Part shown: positions 723-58,056 of the stretch, one piece after another
Numbering within the stretch: the first letter of the stretch is position 1
Layout of the letters: each line of letters opens with the position of its first letter
Source: Psammoneis japonica
Taxonomy: Eukaryota
DNA: 58,056 nt
NCBI GenBank assembly: GCA_008632985.1
Contig: QPGO01000075.1
Span: 312,517-370,572 of the forward strand
Direction of reading: 5' to 3'
The notes under the pieces: model-generated
Database searches by the model: none
Told to the model about the DNA's origin: nothing
The model's input: only the letters and a program-made list of their open reading frames with translations
Position numbers and translations under genes: made by a program

Positions 723-1544
723 GATTATCTCGGGAGAATCAGAAGTGACTTATTGAAAGATTTCAAATATGCTCTTTATGCGGGTTTGCCTCGTGATGGA
801 CGAGTTCGGGTTGCAGACTGGGGAGCGGTGTTCGGGAATTGGTGTCGCGCTTCCATCGCATCATCTTTCATGGTCACGTTTCTCATACTTCTGATTCTCA
901 TGGAAGCAAACAAGTCCCAAAATGGCCGAGGGGGTGCATAAACCAAGCCAAGACATGATGATTCTTCACAAAAAAGTACAAAGTTAAAAAAAGATGGCAA
1001 CGGAAACGTTTGCATCATCATCATTCATCATGCCACATCATGGCCGCGGCAAGAAGACGCACGATGCAGTCGTGACTTACTCGAATCTGAGCCACGAGTG
1101 ACGTCACTGTACTGTATGCGTAAAAATGTGTATGTACTACGCCTGTCTGTGCATCCGTCCCCTTCATTTCCGCGTTTTCAACGTTTCAGGCTCGCTCCTT
1201 TATCTCATCTGCCCCAGCAAGCAAAGTCATCAAGCTCAAAGCTACTGTAGCTCTACTTATTTTGGACGCAATAAAATTCTTTTGACTAGAAGGAATGACA
1301 ACCTCGCATCGTCGATCAGAAGGAGCAAACACACAAAAAGACATGCTACAATCAACAGCGAAATACAAACTAGAGTAGTGCGCGTCTCTCTATAGACTTG
1401 GGCACACAAGGTACGGTCATGTTTGACGTGACATAATTAGTGCAAGAACAAGATTTATATAAAGTAATGTCTAAGTAAGCTGTAAAAAAATCGATCTTTT
1501 GAACCCATTCCTCAAAATCAATTCGAATTCCAATCCAGAACTCC

Positions 1545-2552
1545 CTATAAGACCATTCGGCCCATTCCGTCCGTGGTCGCCGGCAAGACTTGCGGCCCAT
1601 CCAATCGTTGCATAGCTCTATTACTAGTCAAATTGGAAGAATACAATCGAATAGCACTCTGAATCGGACAATGGCCAACTGGACAGGCACACTTGTTCTG
1701 AACCACCAAATCGGCACACTCGTCACAGAGACACGCATGACCACATGGAATGAGAGCATGCGACACTTGCCGAGTGCCACACTCGACACAGGGTTGAATG
1801 CGTGACTCGTGTGGAATCCACAACGTCATGGGCGGAGTGCCCTGCACTCCCGATCCCACCACGACACGCCATCCCATGGACGGCGGCAACTCGTTCTTTT
1901 CACCCGTCGCCATGGCCGCATACAAATCCGTATCGTATCTGGTTCCCGGAGCGTGCTGTTTGGAACAAATCGATAGATACCACCGACTCGACTTGTCCGA
2001 ATGCACGCAACGAAACACGGAAAACACCACGTTTTGTGATTTGTACTTTCCGGGCTTGTCGTAGCGTCCCACATGATCCACCATGCCTGTGCATCTGTAC
2101 AAGCCATTCACCGTGGGCAACGACGCTTCCTCCACCGCCAAGACACCAAAAGTCAATTCCTCGGGCAAGCCCAATTCCATACGAGGGTCTCGTCCCAAAT
2201 CATTCAGAATGTCTCCAATTTCAGAAAGGGTGTTCTCGTTTTCTTCCATGCTGGTACTCGACAGAGATATCAGCAGCGGAGCGGTATTCTTCTTTTTTCG
2301 AGATCGTTGTCTGCGTTCCACAACGAGCGGTGGTTCTCGTATGCTTTCGGGACACGGTCGTCCGTCGAGAATTTCTTCAATAATTTCATTGCGATCCGCC
2401 AGTACGGGCGCTGCCGCCGCAGAGCTGGAATAACTCGTGGAAGGCGGCGGCCTCATGAACAACACATCGCTGCTTTCGCTGTCGTTGTCGTTCTTTTCGG
2501 CATCTACTGTAATCCATGCCGGTATACCTTTATTCGATTGAGTCAGTACCAT
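1545..2552 (-). CDS. C3HC4-type RING finger protein (putative E3 ubiquitin ligase), 335 aa
   Basis: C-terminal CVEC-x11-CGHACLCDEC-x9-CPV RING pattern; single long ORF with normal TpA/CpG content. Confidence 0.85.
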   Translation of the reverse strand: MVLTQSNKGIPAWITVDAEKNDNDSESSDVLFMRPPPSTSYSSSAAAAPVLADRNEIIEEILDGRPCPESIREPPLVVERRQRSRKKKNTAPLLISLSSTSMEENENTLSEIGDILNDLGRDPRMELGLPEELTFGVLAVEEASLPTVNGLYRCTGMVDHVGRYDKPGKYKSQNVVFSVFRCVHSDKSSRWYLSICSKQHAPGTRYDTDLYAAMATGEKNELPPSMGWRVVVGSGVQGTPPMTLWIPHESRIQPCVECGTRQVSHALIPCGHACLCDECADLVVQNKCACPVGHCPIQSAIRLYSSNLTSNRAMQRLDGPQVLPATTDGMGRMVL

Positions 2553-3749
2553 GGTAATAGTAAGTCTTTTGGTTGTTGTTGATGAGTGACTGTTGTGTTC
2601 GCAACCTTCGCAACAAAAACCATGAAGCTATCGCAAGTGTTGCTTTGCTGACGATGACAGGACTTGAAGGGAATTTTCTTTGGTGAGAAATTTTAAATAA
2701 AAATTATCAGTCATAAGGTAATATATTACAGAGGAATCCCATTCAATTTTTTTAAAATAATTAAGCTACGCGTATTATAATACACGTCATAAATTGCATA
2801 CTCAGCGATGAGAGGTATCTTTTCAATTAAGCCCAGAACGTTCTGCCAGCCGTTGTGGATTACCAATGTTCAGTGTTGCATTATTACATGCAATTTTTCA
2901 TATTTAAAATCTCATCTACAGATTTTAAGGACAAGCATTTTGGCGGGAAAGAGTGCAGGTTGGTCATCACTATAAACAGCATGAGAATTTGCTTGCCTTG
3001 CCCCTGTGTGCTCCACCCTCCACCCGTCATGATTCATGCACCCATTTTGTTAACTTCCAAAGGAGTCATGGGGTCAAGATCCAACAATGGCACAGTCTGA
3101 GATGCCGCACCTCTCAGCACACTTCTCACACTCGCACAGCAACAATGCACTCGGCACTGCTGGGCACGTGCCCCAGCTCCAGAGTTTGCAAAGAGGTCGC
3201 GCAACAGAACATCATCACATGCATCCATTGTGCACACCACAGTGGTGATGGTGTTAGAACATTGAGGTTCAAGGTGGTTCTGGGAGGACACACAGACAAT
3301 GTTGCAACAGCAAAAAAGATTGCTGACCATTGCAAATGACGCCGTGCTGGGCATTTTTATGAGAAAACACACTGGTTTGTTCTCCCCACTTTTTGGCTTC
3401 TGCACCATGTCAACATGGTGGCGTGGCAATGGCGCCAGTGACAGCATGAGACACGCGCATGTTTGCAGCCCATGTGGTGAGCTTTGGAGAGCCCAGGTTG
3501 GTGCGGCAGGTTTGGTGTCAGCAAAATGGCAGCAAGGCTCCAACACAGAAGTCAAAAAGGTGCAAGGGCTGGGAAAACAAGAGAAACCCAAAGGGAAGGC
3601 TGGGAAGTTGAGAGAAATCCAATGCCTGGTTGGTGCAAGTGATCGCAGCATTTGAGCTCACTGAGCTGACACAGTTGATTTGTCAACTTGTTGCTCCAGT
3701 TGAAGGAGTGGCTCTGCCTGGGTGAGATTTTGTGTCACCCTTGTTGAGG

Positions 3750-47600: not shown

Positions 47601-49526
47601 CCTTGTCATTGGAACTTTCTCAAGGGGAGTCAACAGGTCCAGACAATGACGTTTGTTGCTTTTCCCTGCACTGCAAAGCTGACCAATCTCTCTCAGGTGG
47701 AAAGCATGCACAAAATTGTCCACAGACAAATGGCAGTCTGTGCTGGATCCAGCAAGAAAGTTTCCAAAACATTGTCGGCAAAGTGAAGCTTTCACTTGCA
47801 TGGACTTGGCAGTGTTTTGAGTTGGAGCAATCTTTTTGCATGAGACAAAACAAGAGAGCAGACAGAACAGGTCCATGTCATTGTTCAATGTGAGTGTGGG
47901 TTTAGAGTGCCAACAGAGGTTGCAGTGTGGACAATGACAAAGTGCAGATTGCATGAAATGCATTTTCTGACAGAATGAGCCAAAATGCCAAAGATGCTGA
48001 TCTAAGAACAAGAGATGGCTTGTGATGTGCAACTCCAGAAAAATTCAGCAAAGACACATGCCAGTGCTCTTTTTCAGGTCGTTTGCTCGATGATTGCCCT
48101 CCAATTGTGGCATCCTCAACAACAAACGGCGGTGACAAGACAAAGATGTGGACCTGCGCAGAGACCTCATTCACACCTTGTTGGTGCAAAACCTTTGAAG
48201 CACCAGGGAGTGCATCCATTGTCAATGGGGTCAACATTGACGAAGCTCTGTGCAGATCCATTTGGATGAATCCCAACTCTCGAAAGCGGAACTTGCCATT
48301 GATCGGCTGCAGACACATTCCAGACATGGTGGGAATCTGTGTGACATTGGGCCCATGGAATTCCATGTGCAAGCTCAGCAGTAAAACCATCAGGCAATTA
48401 ATGCGCCAATGATCGCCAACAGAAAATGAGGCAATTTTGCGAACGCACAAACTCGTCCATGATTGAAGTGCATCATTTTTTGCTCAGCCAGGTGCACTCT
48501 TCAGACATTGAAGAATGCACCTGGAGCATTTGTGTTCCTGTGATTTTGTCAAACAAAACATCTGGGGTTTCGCAAAACAGCAAGTCTGGAACAATTTTTT
48601 GGAAGATCACACGCAGAAATGTGCACGCGAAATGTGCGACGGATGAAAAAAACAATTGTGTCACACGTCAGCACTGCGAGCTCCCACCTGCCAGGGCTGG
48701 GACGCATCTGCAGTTGCACGAAAGTTGTTGCGTTTTGAGCTGTGCCAGCCAAAGAGGGGAACTGTGCAATCTGGCTGCGGCTGGGTGGGATCACAAACAA
48801 AGCCTTCAAGGCGACACAGGGTGCAGCCGTTCTGCTGTGTGGGGCCGCCGTCAATGTGCTCTCCTGAGTCACTGTCCTGGACAATGTCGTCAACTTCTGT
48901 GTGCCTCTCAGGCTGTGTTGTGATGAAATTGTTAGAAAGCTGGTCATGTCACCAAGCAAACATCGGAGCGGTGCTGCGTGGTTGCTCCTCATGTGGACTG
49001 AAGATGTGGCCATTGAAGACAAACTCACGGCATCCATTTTTCGACGTTCTTGCGGTTGCTTCCAAAGACAAAACATGACTTTCAGGAACGGAATTCCAAC
49101 ATGGATCTGATGATGCAAAATGGTCCTGCAAGTTCCCGTTGCACCATGTGTGCATTGGAGTTGGGCCATTGGCATCGGGACAGACATCACTCGCAAGACA
49201 AAATTTGTGCAGTTTGTGACTTTCTGCCAAAAAAGTTTTGCCGTGCTTGCAACACAGCAACCAAGGGCAACTTTGGACAATCAAGGTGAGTGCAATGGAG
49301 GGGCTCCACCCACCAACTCTCATTTGTTTTGCACTCCTTGTGCACCAGAGGTCTGACATGCATGTCAAAAGTTTTTGGACAGTGAGCTGTGTTTTGGACA
49401 AGAATGAACGGCTCTTGCTCACCTGCTGAGTGTCCAGTGCAGCTCAACTCCACTGCACTTGATGGGCTCCAGTCCCAGGTGGTGACATTGGGCCCACAGA
49501 ATTTTGCGTGCGAGCTCCGCAGCAAA
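44621..49526. mobile_element. TpA-depleted block of degenerate repeat DNA, block 3 (host of the copia insertion; continues at 57349-58056)
   Basis: TA nearly absent; internal duplications at about 45431-45560/45623-45731 and 47040-47280; 48428-48708 is homologous to 57396-57675. Confidence 0.75.
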
Positions 49527-49802
49527 TGACAGAAATTGAAGGCAAATGGCAAGAATTCAAACAATGACTCCTCACTGCTGTCTAAATGGCAGATGAGTCT
49601 CCGCTCAGAGACTGTCACAGGAGCCGAAAGACGTGCAAGTCGGTGCAATCGGGCTACTGTCATTATTCTTGTGAGCCTTGTGGCTCGAAAGCAAACTACA
49701 TCGCGCGTGAACGCGCGGAACTAAAGCACACAAAACTGTGCACGGTAAACTAAACAGCGCGCGATGCTTCGCGCGCACCCAAATCCTGTTCAAATCCTGT
49801 CA
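49527..49802 (-). repeat. 3' LTR of the copia element
   Basis: 262/276 identical to 56357-56632 by manual alignment, no indels; preceded on the minus strand by the PPT. Confidence 0.95.
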
Positions 49803-52800
49803 CTCCCCAGTTTGCTTGAGGAGCCACAGAAACAGATTCGACTTCAGATGGAATGAAGTTCCAGAACATGAGGGGGCGGAGAAGGTCCCAGATTTGGGAG
49901 CAACCCCAATGCTTGCTGAGAATGTCAGCAGGGTTGCGGGAGCCTTCGATGAAGTGGAACTCAAGGTAACCAGAGGCAATTGCCTCACGCACACGATGGA
50001 ACGATAGTGCGGTGTGTCGTTTGTGTAACTTGGAGTGCGGGATGGTGGCACTGTCTACAACTGACTTGTTGTCACCGAACATGTAACTAACGTTACGGAT
50101 CGGGACGCCAAGGTGGCGCAGGGTGATGCGCAGGTCGACAATCTGCTCAACACAAGTCCTTGCGGCAACAAATTCAGACCCGCAGGTCGCAGTCTCCACG
50201 GTGGCTTGTTTCTTAGAGAACCAATCAGCCGGGAATTTGTTGAGGAAGTGGAGCATTCCCATGACAGAGCGTCCGGTGAGCATGCAATGGTGCAAGTTTG
50301 CATCGACGTAGTGGGTGGCAGTGACGAACTCGCCAAGGGGCGGTGGAGCGTCCTTCGGGATCATCTCTTCTGCTTCACCATGCACGGAATGCATCCATTC
50401 ATAGGCCGGAGCAGGGAGATCTGAACAGTCGGGCTCTTCCGTGCGAACGCGGAGAGCACCGTGTCGCATCTTGGAGAGGTGCCCACAGACGCGTTTGGCA
50501 CGATCCAAGTGGCCTTGACGGGGCGCAGCTCGGAAGCTAGAGAGTGACATGACGGCCGTGGTAATGTCAATTCGACCAAGGGACACTGCCCATTGGAGTG
50601 AACCAACAAGAGACTGGAACTTGTGAATGCCATCGGGTCCCAGCAGTTCGGAAGTGTCCAGTTCGGGGTGGTCACCCTTCTCTAGAGGTGACAGGGCGTT
50701 GGTGGGGTTTCTCCCCAAACAGTCGGGCACAGCTGTCGACCATGCGCTCGATGTACTTGCGCGGAGACAGGCACAAGGTTCCGTCGGGTTCCCGGGAAAA
50801 GTCGCAACCCAGATGGAACTCAATGGGTCCCGCCCTTGAGCTTGAACTTGTGCTTTTCCGTGAGAGTGTCGACGAAAGATTGAGGGTCCTTCATGGCAAT
50901 GGCGAGGTCATCCACATAAACGGCAATGTGTTCACAGTGGTCGCCGTTCCTGCGCATCCAAATGTCGGGTTCGGCGCGGCAGGGGAAGAAGCCTTCAGCT
51001 CGCAGGCAGTCGGCGAAGCGCTCGTGCCAGCGGAGACCGGAGCTGCGCAGTCCATGCAGTGCCTTGTGGATGACAAGGATGTGTCCTTCGAGTTTGCCGA
51101 ACTCGGGTCCAGCTACAATGTAAAGCTTCTCCTTGGTGGTGGCTTCAAGGTGGGCATTGCCAATGTCGGTGGCCCATGTCTCCAACTCGTTGAGTTCGGC
51201 CAGGAAAATCATCAGCCGAAGGCCACGGAGGGAGACTACTCCGGAGCAGACACTGTCGACAGGTACGTCCGTGAGGTGCCCGTCGGCTACGAGTCGTGCC
51301 TTGTGGCGACCGTCGTGTTTCACGTCGTGCACCAGGTGCACTCGGATCTTCTTGTGTCCCGCAGGAGGAGTGGAAGACTTGAAGGGCCCGCAGTCATGGA
51401 AGACTTCGTATTCGTCGAGTTGGTCCATCTCGAGATTAGTTGCGTCTCCCCACTTGCGGTTGCCGTTGCGTTTGTCTGGTGACATGGCGTGTTTGCAGTT
51501 CCGGGGAACTTCGCATCCACACTTGTAGCGAGGTGCAGTGCGGAAGGAGCGAAGCTTGGCTTGGTTGGCCATGCGAAACAGCTTCTTTTGGCGCCTCGCA
51601 ATGGTGCGGAACCGCTTCCAGCCATCCGTGTCGAGGAGTCCGTTCTCTCGTGCATGGATGGCACAGGTGATGGGGTCGTCCTTGGCGATGATGGCAAGAG
51701 GCTCGGACGTGATCTCCCCACTTTCCCATTCAAGCATGATGTTGTAGCTGGAGCCTTTCCAGGTTGGGTCGTGAGGCTTCAGAGGTCCTTCGTGTGACAC
51801 GATGCGTCGAAATTTCCAAACAGTGGTGTCTTCGTCTTCTTGCTCAATGTGATTCATGATGTCATTGCAGGCAAGGACTTCCTCGTATTCGTCATTGTTG
51901 ACAGAGCAGACGAACCCAGTGAGCTCGGGATTGCCGTTCACTTTCCATTCGTGGTCTTCGACGGCCTTGACGATGCGAGCTCTGTGGCGTTGTCCGTCCT
52001 CTTGTGGCTGCATGAGGAAGGTGCGTCCAATGATGTCTTGCGGATCGAAAACTGGCATCTTGGGTGTCCTGATCTCCCCATCAGGAGAGTCGACGGGGTT
52101 GTCGTCATGGCGAGATTTGATGATGGGTTCAGGTGGCTCCCCATCAGGAGGATCAAGACGCAGGTTTCAAATGGCAGGATCAGGGGTGGCGGAGCGGATG
52201 TTGGACCGGTGGAGGATTTTCTGAGTCTCATCGGACAGAATCTTGAAGGTCATCTGGTGGCCAACGTGCTCAGCAATGCCAACGAAGCGTCCACGCAACT
52301 CACGGGATTCGGATGGCCAATCGGAGTCATCGAGGTGGAAGCACACGGGTTCCCACCAGTGAAAGCGAAGCAATGGGCTGATGTCCGGGGTGGAGCCAGT
52401 GAGAGTCTCGAGGGGCGTGCGCCAGTGGAGACGTGGGGACGCTGTGTGGTTGAGCATGAAGCACACGCACATGAGCGCCAGCAGCCATGTGTGGGCGGGC
52501 GAACCAAAGCGATCCATGACAGTGTTCGCCATGCGCTTCACGGTCTGGTGTTGATGCTCGGCAAAGTTTTGGTGTTGCTGGTGAGGCTCACTTTGCCAGC
52601 TAGAGATGAAGAGGGCGCGCAGGATCCCGAGCACTTTGTGGCTGATCTCAACTTGAGCACGGTCGCCAATGAGTTTGGACGGGGCACCACGTTCACGGAT
52701 CTGATCCTCGAGTGTGTTGACAAACTCTTTGTCCGTCTTAGTGCCGTAGACGTCAGTGACGGTAGACTCGGTGCCAACAAACAGTTGGGTGCTGGTGCAA

Positions 52801-55415
52801 CCAGAGTCGACGGCCGGGGTGTCGGCATGAACGGTGTCAGTGGCGACAGGCTCGTTGCGGCGGTGCACATTAAGGGCGGGGTTGGGTGATTTGTGGGCCT
52901 TGCGAAGGTGTGTACCGGCGGGCATGCGGGCGTACTGCGTGGTGCAGTCAAAAGTACGACGGACCGTGTCGGCAGGTAGGAAGCCAAAGCAAGGCCGAAG
53001 AGACTCGAAGGGGGGGTCCTTGGGCTGTACAGTGCGCTCCGGAGGTGGAACGTCATCGCCCTGGGGGCCAATCGCATGCAGATGACACTCGTAGAACACG
53101 TCGTCGTTCGGAATGAGGTGATCATCGAGGGCGGACGCGTGATCGGCAGACAAGGAAGCGGACATGATGGTCTCGTTGACAACGACACGATGACGGTGGT
53201 TGCCGCATTCGTCAAATAGGTTGGCAGTGGGATCGTCCTGCAGGTCAGAGATCGCGTCGCACCACTGGTCGTCGTCAGTGACAGAGTGATCGAGGACGGA
53301 AGGGTCCCATGTGTCATCACCGGTGAGGATGACATGGGGCAGGGTGTCCCATTCGGCGTCAGTGTGAGGTCGCATGGCAACACAAGGCAGGCCAGCCTTG
53401 ATGTCAATGGGGATGACATGGCCATCAGGAGTGGCAATGCGTTGCAAGCCGTTGGGCACCTTGACAGAGCGATCGTTGACATCCTGTTTGCACCATTCGA
53501 GCTGGCCGCAGGAATGGATGGTCTTGCCCTTGCCCGTGTGTGCGCACTGATGGAGGATGGCGATGACGGGACCATGCTGGGTCTCAACAACGGCACCAGC
53601 GGTGACAATGGGGATGTCCACCAATTGATGATCGTCAATGCCCTGAACGTCGACTTGGCGAGAGGTGCATGCAATGACGCGAACGTCGTCGCCAGCAATG
53701 CCGCCGTTGGCCCCACGATCGACTAGAGCGCCAGTGCGTGTGGAGCGATGAGCAGAGGCAGAGCAAATGACATTGTGGTTGTCAACGCAGCGGCAAGTGC
53801 GGCCGTCAAGTTCCATGTCATCTGCAGAGGCTGGCGGGGTAGAGGAAGCGGCGGATGGCCCCGGTCGACTGGCATTGGGGGCTTGGTTAGGAGACAACAG
53901 ACGTTGCAGATCACCGGGTGGCAGTGGCTTGCGCTTGGTGAGGTGCGCCAGGATGGGATTGTCCGAAGTGGCGTCCACATGTGGAGCGGAGTCACCAGAG
54001 TCAGCAGGAGTCGTGTTGGACAAGTTGACATCACCGTCACTCCCAAGGTGTTGGTCGTGAAGGTTGGCCGTAACAGACTCATGGCAGTCACTGGCTCGCG
54101 GGTTGCGGGGAGGTGGACGAGAATGCTCAAGGATGATCGCCTTGGAGGAATCGGGCAACGAATCCCAGAGCCGTTGGTGGTCGGGAGGGAGACGTCTCCA
54201 TTGGACACCGGTGAGGCTGGGACCGCGGGTGCAGGCAGCATTGGCTTGAAGGACATCAACGTCGCTGTCAATGTCGTAGAACACATCGTCGGACGGTTCC
54301 TCGGAGCAGACGTCGTGTGCGTGTGTGGCGCGTCGGGGAGCTCGAGGTGTCGTCTTGGGTTGAAACGTGCTGTCGCACTGAGCTGCCGCGGAGAGGAGCA
54401 AACCACAGTGTTGGTCGCATGTGAGGCTCTTGCCACTCTGCGTGCGATGCTGATCAGCTTGGTTCTTGACAGCACGGAGTTCCTCGACAGGGTGCACGGC
54501 ATTCTCGAGCATGACGCGCTTCTGTCCTTCAGAGAAGTGGTCACTGGCCGGGATGAGTGCCTCGCACTTGCGCAGCTGATCTTGCCAATGAAGGATGAAC
54601 CCGTGGGTCGGACCTTTCCAAGTGCCATCACCAAGACGTGCGGTGGTGAGGTGCGTGAGCAGGGTGGAGGACTCGACAGATGCGCGGGTGGAGGCAAGCG
54701 CGTGCTCAGACAAGGAGCGGCAGACAGTCTGTGCGTCAGAAGACCCCACATTTTCGCGAATGAGAGCCTTGCCCTTGTCGGTGAGAAGGATGCGTTCGAA
54801 GACGGCGAACATGTGCTTTTGCTGTTCAGCAAAGAGCAGTTTGTCTTCGGGGCTGGTCGGTTTGTACGACGAGTCTAGAGTGCACTCGACGTCTTGGGCA
54901 TGGGCTTGTGCCACAAGTGAGGTGTGCCAAGTGTGCCACTGCTTGTCGGATTTGAGAGCCGTGAAAGCGGTGGGATCACGCTTGATGCCTCGCTTGAAGT
55001 CCCGCACCGGGTCACGTGCCTTGGTCGGGTTGGTGACATGTGGAGGTGCAAGGGGTGAGCTGCCGATGGACACAGAAGACATGCAGTCGGGGCTGAGGCG
55101 GCAGGCAAGGAACTCGTCATGCGTGAACAAAGAGGAGTCGTTGGCAACGTCAAGACCTTTGTGTGCTTTGACAATGTACAGACTGACCAGTGCTGCTAAC
55201 ATGTTCTTATAACCACGGGGCAAAGGGGTTGCATTAGTGCCGTTGTCGCACTCAAGCGAGTCGATTTGGGACGGGATGAACGTGAACAGTTCCTGATGCG
55301 AGTCCATGCCATCTTGGGCCAAAGCCAAACGAAGAGGACTCCCAGCACCTTGGGCAAGCACGGTTCCAACCACATGCTCGAAACCATCGGTTTGTTGCTG
55401 ACGAGTGAGAACCAT
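49750..55415 (-). pseudogene. Copia gag-pol polyprotein, inactivated (in-frame TGA at 52167-52169, frameshifts near 50830 and 50700, many Tyr->Cys/His)
   Basis: Protease LVDRGANGG; integrase VATDTV, IGDRAQVE, SEPHQQHQNFAE; RT HKARLVA, DIGNAHL, ALHGLRSSG, YVDDL; RNase H YVDANL, GSEF, GDNKSV, NPADILSK. Confidence 0.93.
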
Positions 55416-56341
55416 GGCAGACAAAAGTGGTGTCAGGACAATCAATTCTGGTTGGGAAGCGAAGGTGGACTCGAAACTTGGGTGAGAATGGACTTGACTT
55501 GAAGTGGACTTGACTTGAAATCTTGAACTGTCTTAAAATCAGAAGTCGCCGGGCTTTGTTGTCCCGTTCGTTGTCAAGTGCTAAACTTCCTGTCCGGTCC
55601 GTAGAGTTGTGCCGGCACGTCCGAACCCGCAGCTGGCGGCGCTTTGGGTTGCTTGCGAGCGGAGTGGCGGGTTGCAAACCCCTGCAGGCAAGCTGACCAG
55701 AGGTGGACAAGACCCCCGAACCGTTCTCATTTTATGTCGGTTGGATTTCCCGATCAGGCTGGCCAGTTGACGCAGGCGTCAGGCGCTGTGGACGAACGAA
55801 CAAACGCGGGAAAGCACCCTCGCCCCAACGCAGGCTGCAATCACGACCACCTGCTCTCACAGTCGTCCTCGTGGACCTGGCAGAACTGTGGAGCACCAGC
55901 AGTCCGGGGTGGATCAGGTGCAATGGACTCGGTGTGCTTGTAGAGTGGCAGCAAAACCGCAGTCCGAAGAGTGGACAAAGGTTCTTGGCCGTGAAGACAT
56001 GCACACATGTGTGTGTGTCTTCAGCGACTGAGATCCTTGAATGTGCGGGGTTCTTGACCGTCAACCGAGGAACAGGCACACAAAGGGATGTTGATCAAGG
56101 ATGGACTTGGACGTGACCGTTGAATGTGAGTCTTCAGCGACCAAAGGCAGCACAATCAATCCAGACATCCAGCGGCAAGGAGACTTGATGGTGACGTTAA
56201 CTTCCTGCCGATGCCCTGGCATTGAATGCGCGCAGACTTGCCGACACATGTAGAACACATACGGAGGTCCACGCAGAATTGAAATGGCATCGTTGGCAAA
56301 TCAACGACGACGATGGCGGTTGCTCAATGGGTTGACAATGA

Positions 56342-56356
56342 GCAAGACTGTCAATC
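56342..56356 (-). promoter_or_regulatory. Putative half-tRNA-type primer binding site of the copia
   Basis: No TGG after the 5' LTR; the plus strand reads GCAAGACTGTCAATC, an anticodon-loop pattern GA-CT-NNN-AA-TC, which would be GACTGTTAATC (Asn, GUU) before a TA->CA change. Confidence 0.45.
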
Positions 56357-56632
56357 TGACAGAAATTGAAGGCAAATGGCAAGAATTCAAACAACAACTC
56401 CTTGCTGCTGTCTAAACAGCAGATGAGTCTCCGCTCAGAGACCGTTGCAGGAGCCGAAAGACGTGTAAGTCGGTATAATCGGGCTGCTGTCATTATTCTT
56501 GTGAGCCTTGTGGCTCGAAAGCAAACTACATCGCGCGTGAACGCGCGGAACTAAAGCACACAAAACTGTGCACGGTAAACTAAACAGCGCGCGATGCTTC
56601 GCGCGCACCTAAATCCTGTTCAAATCCTGTCA
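56357..56632 (-). repeat. 5' LTR of the copia element
   Basis: Direct repeat of 49527-49802 with TG...CA termini. Confidence 0.95.
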
Positions 56633-56692
56633 TGACAGGATTTAAACAAGATTGACCAACTCGATTAAATCCGACCCATCAACCTGAAAAAT

Positions 56693-56756
56693 TGCGATAC
56701 CCAGGAATCGAACCTAGGTCCTCTTATAACCGGTTACCGTCTAAACCATTTACCGC
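56693..56756 (-). ncRNA. tRNA-like Pol III unit in the 3' LTR of TRIM B (64 nt, no canonical anticodon arm)
   Basis: GCGGTAAATGGTTTAGACGGTAACCGGTTATAAGAGGACCTAGGTTCGATTCCTGGGTATCGCA: acceptor-like GCGGTA/TATCGC plus A, A box, T arm CTAGG-TTCGATT-CCTGG, then ATTTTT terminator. Confidence 0.7.
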
Positions 56757-56857
56757 TTTCTTCAAACTGACAGGCTTTTTGTACATAGTCACACATGTTT
56801 CAGCCAGAGAGTGACATACACCTTTAATTCTTCTTAGAATTCTGTCACTCCCCATAT

Positions 56858-56893
56858 GTCACGAAGCTGTCTGACGTCACGAAGCTGTCTGAC
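56858..56893. repeat. Perfect 18-bp tandem duplication GTCACGAAGCTGTCTGAC x2 in the TRIM B interior
   Basis: Read directly from the sequence. Confidence 0.9.
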
Positions 56894-57193
56894 GTTCCTT
56901 TCTTTGGACAATGATACTTCTCACAGCTCCCCTTCTACCTGGGCCACATTTTTCTGCACATGTCATGACCTCCCCGGCGAACTGATAATTGGGCGGCCAT
57001 TCCGGCCTCGGCATCCCTAATAAGAGCACTATGTGCATCGTCGGTCTGTCTCACCGCAGCCTCTCCTCAGTTTTAGAGTCATCTTGAAGGAGCACACACA
57101 CCTAGGTTCAAATCATCAACGGTCCTCGCACCATGACAGGATTTAAACAAGATTGACCAACTCGATTAAATCCGACCCATCAACCTGAAAAAT

Positions 57194-57257
57194 TGCGATA
57201 CCCAGGAATCGAACCTAGGTCCTCTTATAACCGGTTACCGACTAAACCATTTACCGC
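57194..57257 (-). ncRNA. tRNA-like Pol III unit in the 5' LTR of TRIM B
   Basis: Same as 56693-56756 except the A box reads TGGTTTAGTCGG; followed by TTTTT. Confidence 0.7.
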
Positions 57258-57757
57258 TTTCTTCAAACTGACAGGCTTTTTGTACATAGTCACACATGTT
57301 TCAGCCAGAGAGTGACACACACCTTTAATTCTTCTTAGAATTCTGTCAGTAAAATTGTTCAGCAATGGACACATGAATGATCACCAACAGAAAAAGAGGC
57401 AATTTTGCGAACGTGTCTCCTCCTCCACACTTGAAGCACATTCTTTGCAGCATGCCCGGGTGTGTTCTTCAGACATCAAAGAATGTGCCCAGCGCATTTT
57501 TGTTGTCACAAATGCAGACAACAGAAAGCCTTCAGCTTCGCAAAACAGGCAGTGTGGAACAAATTTGTGCAACAGAACATGCAGAAATGTGCGCGCAAAA
57601 CATGCAACGGATGACAAAAAACAATTGTGTCACAGTTCAGCAGTGCGAGGTCCCACCCAGAGCTGGAATGCATCACTTGTCAAATGTGGTGTTTCTCTTC
57701 CTCTTGGCTGGAGGACAGCTCCAGCTCTCCAGAGGTGGTTGGTGTGTGTGATGTGGT

Positions 57758-57758
<1 letters not shown>

Positions 57759-57792
<34 letters not shown>
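57759..57792. repeat. (CA)17 microsatellite
   Basis: Read directly from the sequence. Confidence 0.95.
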
Positions 57793-57794
<2 letters not shown>

Positions 57795-58056
57795 AGAATG
57801 CGAGCGCGAGAGTTGGTTTTTCGGACGGTTGCCACGATTGATTTTTGGTTTCTGCGCAGCATCCAGCACTGTTTCCACTGGACTCAACTGCACACATCGA
57901 GTTTTTTTGGTTGAGGCTGTTTTGCACTGCACCCTTTGGAGTTCGGAGAAAGGGAAGACACCAGGCAATGTCCCCAGCGAGTGAAGTTCAGGTTTGCTTG
58001 AGCCGCTGGCATGGTCGCATTTAACGGCTTCAGTGCTCATGGTGTGCGACTCGCTT

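Follow-up and report, generated by a model that had tools for sequence, protein, structure and literature searches.

A TRIM with probably tRNA-Gly-derived units in its LTRs next to a Copia element: a putative Helenus-type retrotransposon of a diatom-like host

The window (the whole stretch of DNA analysed, 58,056 nt) contains a TRIM and a full-length Ty1/Copia element that touch each other (Table 1). The untrimmed direct repeats of the TRIM span 56631-56847 and 57132-57348, and trimming to TG...CA ends yields the LTR limits; the LTR pair shows 2 mismatches in 215 nt. The minus strand was taken as the sense strand because a TGG-type primer-binding site (PBS) touches one LTR and a GGGGAG tract, part of the polypurine tract (PPT), touches the other. 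The plus strand was rejected as sense strand, since a TGG-type PBS and a purine tract are both absent from its LTR edges. The succession of LTR, PBS and PPT is that of a TRIM and agrees, coordinates included, with what an initial annotation made from the sequence had proposed. No ORF of 180 aa or more was found in the internal region, and the TRIM copy itself has no target-site duplication, its flanks being TGTCA and GTAAA. The TGACGT-type motif at the junction of the two 18-bp tandem copies in the internal region may be bound by a transcription factor.

Table 1. Positions of the features of the TRIM and of the adjacent Copia element within the window.
Feature	Position	Strand	Remarks
Whole TRIM: LTR, 286-bp non-coding internal region, LTR	56633..57348	minus	716 bp
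5' LTR, TGACAG...CTGTCA	57134..57348	minus	215 nt
3' LTR, 215 nt	56633..56847	minus	differs from 5' LTR at 56740 and 56817
Primer-binding site (PBS) TGGTGCGAGGACCG	57133 to 57120	minus	abuts 3' edge of 5' LTR; TGG-type
Polypurine tract (PPT) ATATGGGGAG	56857 to 56848	minus	abuts 3' LTR; GGGGAG tract
Box complementary to tRNA T arm, sense GATTTGAACCTAGGT	57100..57114	minus	11 nt past the first 8 PBS nt
Two exact 18-bp tandem copies, internal region	56858..56893	.	TGACGT motif at junction
64-nt tRNA-derived unit, 5' LTR (LTR positions 92-155)	57257 to 57194	minus	Rfam tRNA alignment
64-nt tRNA-derived unit, 3' LTR	56756 to 56693	minus	one difference, 56740, D loop/A-box region
Exact B box GGTTCGATTCC	57205..57215; second copy 56704-56714	minus	motif scan
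A-box-like TGGTTTAGTCGG	57238..57249	minus	read from Rfam alignment
TTTTT (T5)	57188..57192; second copy 56687-56691	minus	one base (A) after discriminator
Full-length Ty1/Copia element, touching the TRIM	49527..56632	minus	RVT_2, E 2.9e-22
Copia LTRs, 276 nt	49527-49802 and 56357-56632	minus	14/276 positions differ

The reverse transcriptase of the Copia element has its nearest named relative in the diatom Fistulifera solaris (58% identity), with best unnamed matches of up to 66% identity, and no relative was found for it in IMG/VR. Its ORFs lie at 49750-55532 on the minus strand, where one in-frame stop separates a 1121-aa from a 448-aa ORF and a frame change precedes the last ORF of 385 aa. 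No Pfam match was obtained for the 1121-aa ORF (gag-protease-integrase by eye) even at E<=5, which suggests a very divergent Copia lineage. The termini of the element are TGACAG...CTGTCA like those of the TRIM, and its purine tract ACTGGGGAG, at the position equivalent to that of the TRIM PPT, is similar to the latter, whereas its primer site is of a different type: GATTGACAGTCTTGCTC (56340-56356, minus strand) is not of the 3'-end (TGG) type, and in complement it resembles the stem-loop that would carry an anticodon GUC (Asp). Internal priming from an anticodon stem-loop is known for some Copia elements. The other ORFs tested correspond to ordinary cellular genes, namely RING finger, laminin-G-like domain and DnaJ, as well as a MutS2-like gene for which no close relative with a name was obtained. 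The description of the host as diatom-like is therefore based on a single line of evidence, the reverse transcriptase match.

The end of the TRIM LTR and the start of the Copia LTR are contiguous, with 0 nt between them, at a 21-nt near-palindrome (56612-56653). Neither element has a 5-bp duplication of its own; the outer flanks of the pair, GCAAA (49522-49526) and GTAAA (57349-57353), agree at 4/5 positions. A single cDNA in which both were joined may have integrated, or the junction may have come about later. Their LTR ages differ, with 14/276 differences for the Copia element as compared to 2/215 for the TRIM. When the TRIM LTR is aligned with the Copia LTR (56633-56847 against 56357-56632), the orientation opposite to the one set by PBS and PPT aligns better (z 5.0 vs 3.0), with 19/21 matches at one end and some 30 nt of similarity at the other.

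Each TRIM LTR carries a 64-nt unit to which the Rfam tRNA model aligns from first to last position. The score, 17.5 bits, does not reach the gathering score of 29, and E is 0.16 for a search space of 121 nt. The unit agrees with its initial description as having an A box, a B box, a discriminator A and a terminator and lacking a proper anticodon arm. The unit consists of a 6-bp acceptor stem with one G-U pair, a 4-bp D stem, a T arm and the discriminator A; a 13-nt linker replaces the anticodon and variable arms, leaving 4 nt in the anticodon region as compared to 13 in the Rfam model. The 58-kb window has two matches to the B box as compared to 0.30 expected, both of them in the LTRs, and the A-box-like sequence departs from what we take to be the consensus by one mismatch and one extra base. 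On the sense strand of the TRIM, runs of four or more T occur only at the two T5 that follow the units, whereas an estimated 2.8 or so further runs would be expected from base composition; this scarcity fits a Pol III template. The minimum-energy fold of the unit is unremarkable when compared to shuffles (z -1.14), hence the tRNA ancestry that the unit displays is read from its sequence and from the model alignment and not from stability. Its best matches among 84 tRNAs, a biased set, are to tRNA-Gly, a likeness that had also been pointed out at the outset. The LTR unit is a degenerate, probably tRNA-Gly-derived sequence in which the promoter boxes for Pol III and a T5 have been retained.

Two other identities were considered for the unit and rejected. 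It does not qualify as a functional tRNA gene, lacking a complete cloverleaf and anticodon arm and scoring below the Rfam gathering score; ARAGORN at default settings called 0 tRNA genes, and its calls at relaxed thresholds were spurious cloverleaves only. Neither is it a tRNA-derived SINE (SINE2), as it is embedded in an LTR, where A+T5 and then unrelated LTR sequence without a tail come after it.

That the unit is a passive relic, i.e. a captured host tRNA gene, pseudogene or SINE head without a role, in a TRIM transcribed by Pol II, seems unlikely to us but has several observations on its side. Besides the lost anticodon arm and the unremarkable fold, there is a TATAA inside the unit at LTR position 120, and the unit of the 3' LTR has a change in the A-box region. 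Variable sites, as scored from the LTR pair and Logan contigs, number 3 in the 64 nt of the unit and 11 in the remaining 151 nt of the LTR; variation in the unit being no lower than elsewhere, there is no sign of extra constraint. On this view the LTR may be a composite, made up of an older 80-nt LTR, flanking DNA with a tRNA gene and a further piece resembling an LTR end; the LTR end motif CCTGTCA recurs at LTR positions 74-80 and so precedes the unit by 11 nt. Against this stand the exact B box, the near A box and the intact T5 in both LTRs, together with the lack of any other sense run of four or more T, while the internal CCTGTCA is a single 7-mer for which about 0.013 occurrences are expected per strand in 215 nt.

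As an observation in its own right, the repeated end motif (57269-57275) is found likewise in the other LTR, and the present LTR may have arisen from an older one of 80 nt together with adjoining DNA in which a tRNA gene was located.

Logan DNA contigs of three runs from one sample, the source sample, were aligned to 56400-57140. The PBS-to-LTR junction was confirmed in two of the runs, the region of PBS and box was covered by one contig per run, and variant TRIM copies occur among the contigs, which indicates more than one copy of the TRIM in the source sample. One contig of 1183 nt, from a single run, holds the LTR, the PBS and 115 internal nt (57017-57131) without difference and then diverges. 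It represents a second family member with the same LTR, which might be longer or autonomous. Summed word depth, which is not a copy number and stems from three runs of one sample, was 197,000-751,000 for the Copia LTR (56400-56632), 797-3243 for the TRIM LTR and 385-1559 for the TRIM internal region, and the TRIM family is clearly far rarer in the sample than the Copia family. The family to which the Copia LTR belongs is very abundant, at a depth hundreds of times that of the TRIM, and many of its sites vary.

The same contigs bear on the suggestion that the TRIM is not mobile at all and would be a local tandem duplication or an assembly artefact beside the abundant Copia LTR. The TRIM copy lacks its own target-site duplication and directly touches the Copia LTR, and none of the Logan contigs listed bridges 56632/56633. 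However, the TG...CA termini, the TGG-type PBS and the GGGGAG tract coincide precisely with the LTR edges, the junction of PBS and LTR is spanned by contigs from two runs, and variant copies exist, including the one in which LTR and 115 nt are followed by divergent sequence. We give this explanation hardly any credence.

The initial annotation had also drawn attention to complementarity between the unit and the region downstream of the 5' LTR, and re-counting gave the same figures. Once CCA is added, 8 contiguous nt of the unit pair with the PBS; the unit mismatches the PBS at positions 9-11 and reaches 11/18 over the first 18. Following the 11-nt spacer, the box is complementary to the T arm of the unit at 13/15 positions, 10 of which are contiguous. 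A score of 13/15 was reached by 1 in 500 shuffles of the internal region, and by 1 in 1000 when limited to its first 60 nt; the complementarity of the box to a tRNA T arm is beyond chance. The 8-nt match is weaker than it appears, because 3 of the 8 nt are the untemplated universal CCA and because the same 5-nt end is present in 1, and the same 4 nt in 2, of 34 tRNAs from fetched loci that were not selected by pattern. As to the box, the generic T-loop motif common to any tRNA accounts for 10 of the 15 positions, and the natural tRNAs scored match it at 9-12/15.

How much of this is specific to the unit depends on the type of tRNA involved. In eukaryotes and archaea, tRNA-Gly is characterised by G1-C72, C2-G71, G3-C70 and A73, which results in the end CGC-A, and we take CGC-A in both the unit and the complement of the PBS to be such a tRNA-Gly-type end, accounting for 4 of the 5 templated matches. 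Any primer with a CGC-A end, be it tRNA-Gly or another, would thus bring along these 4/5 matches by shared type. The pentamer ACCTA, which box and unit have in common beyond the generic GGTTC, would have no such shared-type explanation and forms the best argument for a closer link, either common descent from one tRNA species or a self-encoded primer. The 5-nt end match and the 13/15 box are jointly unlikely by pure chance, a point that we count against priming by a host tRNA and from which it follows that the unit and the PBS region are truly connected in some way. To our knowledge there is no earlier case of an LTR unit and a PBS region fitting each other at all, and the fit reflects either shared tRNA ancestry or a self-supplied primer.

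In order to describe which tRNA ends fit the PBS, large sequence collections were scanned. The IMG/VR pattern, a T loop followed by the acceptor strand implied by the PBS, retrieved 82 stretches, 39 of which hold a tRNA-Leu that ends exactly there, 3 a tRNA-Phe and 1 a tRNA call of undetermined type, the other 39 holding none. The tRNA-Leu genes match the PBS over 11 contiguous nt, and a T-run within 12 nt after the discriminator is present in 12 of the 43 tRNA-bearing stretches. A metagenome scan with the PBS acceptor strand plus the preceding GG gave 71 stretches with a tRNA at the match in 14 (Leu 7, Gly 5, Arg 2), and the examples scored match the PBS over 14 nt; one further match turned out not to be a tRNA. 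The acceptor strand of the unit itself, used in the same kind of scan on IMG/VR, occurred in at least 117 stretches, with 0 ARAGORN tRNAs, and the T arm plus acceptor of the unit gave 0 matches in IMG/VR. An IMG/VR search with CA plus 12 nt of the PBS was discarded, since a 14-mer is too short to inform: it yielded at least 120 matches, all in unrelated phage-like contexts. The IMG/VR stretches retrieved with the acceptor strand of the unit include a large set of near-identical phage sequences whose acceptor and T arm resemble those of a tRNA without an ARAGORN call, the commonest form being seen 33 times, mostly in one sample; these may be a truncated tRNA-like element of phages.

From these scans the PBS appears to correspond to a genuine and widespread tRNA 3' end that extends well beyond the 8 nt with which the unit can pair. 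The initial annotation had named a host tRNA ending in ...GGTCCTCGCACCA as the alternative to a self-encoded primer; a host tRNA of Gly or Leu type ending in ...CGGUCCUCGCA would fit the PBS over 11-14 contiguous nt. It counts against a host primer that the matching tRNAs of IMG/VR and the metagenomes come from no diatom record, and the metagenome scan gave no clearly diatom tRNA with a 14-nt fit. The predicted duplex between the 3' 34 nt of the unit and the first 40 internal nt has an energy of -37.4 kcal/mol and those of the natural tRNAs scored range from -35 to -48 kcal/mol, so the candidates are not separated by energy.

The initial annotation inferred that the element may transcribe its own primer. 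The RNA of the Pol III unit, ended at T5, trimmed by RNase Z and tailed with CCA to about 67 nt, would then prime minus-strand synthesis of its own element by means of the 8-bp PBS duplex and the T-arm box, which together would form a bipartite site like those of Ty3 and Ty1. If true, this would be a retrotransposon bearing the gene for its own primer. Several properties suit it: the 8 contiguous nt followed after the 11-nt spacer by a 13/15 box that only 1 in 500 shuffles attains, a duplex energy inside the natural tRNA range, a terminator right after the unit as befits a discrete small RNA, and an acceptor/T-arm minihelix, which is the part of a tRNA required by 3' processing and CCA addition. 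Nevertheless, 6 further PBS nt fit the acceptor/T-stem ends of natural tRNAs where the unit is mismatched at 9-11, and with 3 of the 8 nt in CCA and 4 in the presumed tRNA-Gly-type CGC-A a single informative base is left. It is known from retrovirus work that in new copies the primer itself is the template for part of the PBS, and the family is young (LTRs 2/215), so a PBS primed by the unit should fit the unit better than it does; Ty1 and Ty3 retain short primer sites, which tempers this argument. In addition, no such complementarity was found in the described Helenus families, according to the available text of Kojima 2024 (PMC10886601). Since the PBS fits natural tRNA 3' ends over 11-14 nt and the unit mismatches from position 9, self-priming appears disfavoured as compared to priming by a host tRNA, and we regard it as improbable.

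We consider it probable, on the whole, that the element is a Helenus-type TRIM (TRIMp3) that is mobilised by a Copia-type helper, with Pol III as its polymerase and a Gly- or Leu-type tRNA of the host as its primer; transcription mode, primer and helper are inferred. Pol III would start at the unit in the 5' LTR. A partial stop at T5 would give a tRNA-like RNA of about 65-70 nt, and partial read-through to the T5 of the 3' LTR a genomic RNA of about 570 nt with the unit as its terminal repeat (R), as proposed for Cassandra. Reverse transcription would start from a host tRNA, either Gly or Leu in type, with the 3' end ...(CGG)UCCUCGCACCA, which the T-arm box may steady in the way the extra boxes of Ty1 do. 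The partial fit between unit and PBS would then stem from the derivation of both from one tRNA type, the unit itself not being the primer. A Copia helper is suggested by two features that the TRIM has in common with the adjacent Copia element, namely the TGGGGAG core of the PPT and termini of the form TGACAG...CTGTCA. What counts against the proposed cycle is that T5 directly follows the unit, so that Pol III without read-through would yield a small RNA only and no genomic RNA, that the unit scores below the Rfam gathering score, that this TRIM copy is without its own target-site duplication, and that variation inside the unit is no lower than elsewhere in the LTR.

The class of elements is not new: TRIMs with tRNA-derived LTR sequence plus PBS and PPT have been described as Helenus, which together with Cassandra and Ajax form TRIMp3 (Kojima 2024, PMC10886601). 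With its tRNA-derived LTR sequence and its A and B boxes the present element has the structure by which Helenus and TRIMp3 are defined. The resemblance includes its 716 bp, within the 311-1263 bp given in the available text of that paper, a unit that is unlikely to encode a working tRNA, and a Copia-type neighbour: the fungal Helenus families are tied to Copia and to 5-bp target duplications, and several families use tRNA-Leu (PMC10886601). The hosts in Table 1 of Kojima 2024 are fungi, six animal phyla and the lycophyte Selaginella, with no stramenopile, whereas the element described here is of a diatom-like host; the words diatom and stramenopile are absent from the available text (PMC10886601). 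Further differences are the lack of the whole anticodon arm here, the T5 directly after the discriminator, terminators not being discussed for Helenus in the available sections of Kojima 2024, and the partial complementarity of the unit's 3' end and T arm to the PBS region. The idea of a self-encoded primer was in fact raised by Kojima, who found no complementarity between LTR unit and PBS and concluded that the unit is not the primer, and multiple origins of Helenus have been proposed in the same paper (PMC10886601, available text). The present element is likely of an origin independent of the described Helenus families, its placement being by structure and not by sequence relatedness.

Cassandra resembles the element in that each LTR contains the copy of a small Pol III gene, complete with promoter and terminator, and its proposed transcript runs from the unit of the 5' LTR to the terminator of the 3' LTR unit (PMC10886601, available text). 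Unlike in Cassandra, a plant lineage, the unit here is tRNA-derived and not 5S-derived; an Rfam scan of 56000-58056 gave no 5S rRNA match at E<=10. With Ty3 and Ty1 the element may share a short PBS supplemented by a further box that pairs with the T arm of the primer, which in yeasts is the host initiator tRNA-Met; the box of the present element differs in lying 11 nt downstream on the same side. Should the element prime itself, it would resemble Tf1 in supplying its own primer, but Tf1 primes from the 5' end of its own genomic RNA and the primer here would be a separate LTR-encoded Pol III RNA.

Searches of the literature, as far as its text was available, on follow-ups to Helenus and TRIMp3, diatom TRIMs and self-priming found nothing closer, and no TRIM with a Pol III-type LTR unit in diatoms. 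The CoDi paper (PMC2806351) does not mention PBS or tRNA primers in its available text, the readable supplementary files of a Phaeodactylum small-RNA paper contain no occurrence of the element sequence, and literal-sequence searches of papers returned unrelated primer lists only. Helenus and TRIMp3, with their Pol III-type LTR units, would be extended to a diatom-like host, and because the layout is clean, with a terminator after the unit and T-runs nowhere else, Pol III transcription in the manner of Cassandra is easy to test. LTR units of this kind can also lead to too many tRNA genes being predicted in algal genomes. A (CA)n microsatellite (57757-57791) that lies just downstream of the TRIM is the source of spurious miRNA and snoRNA Rfam matches.
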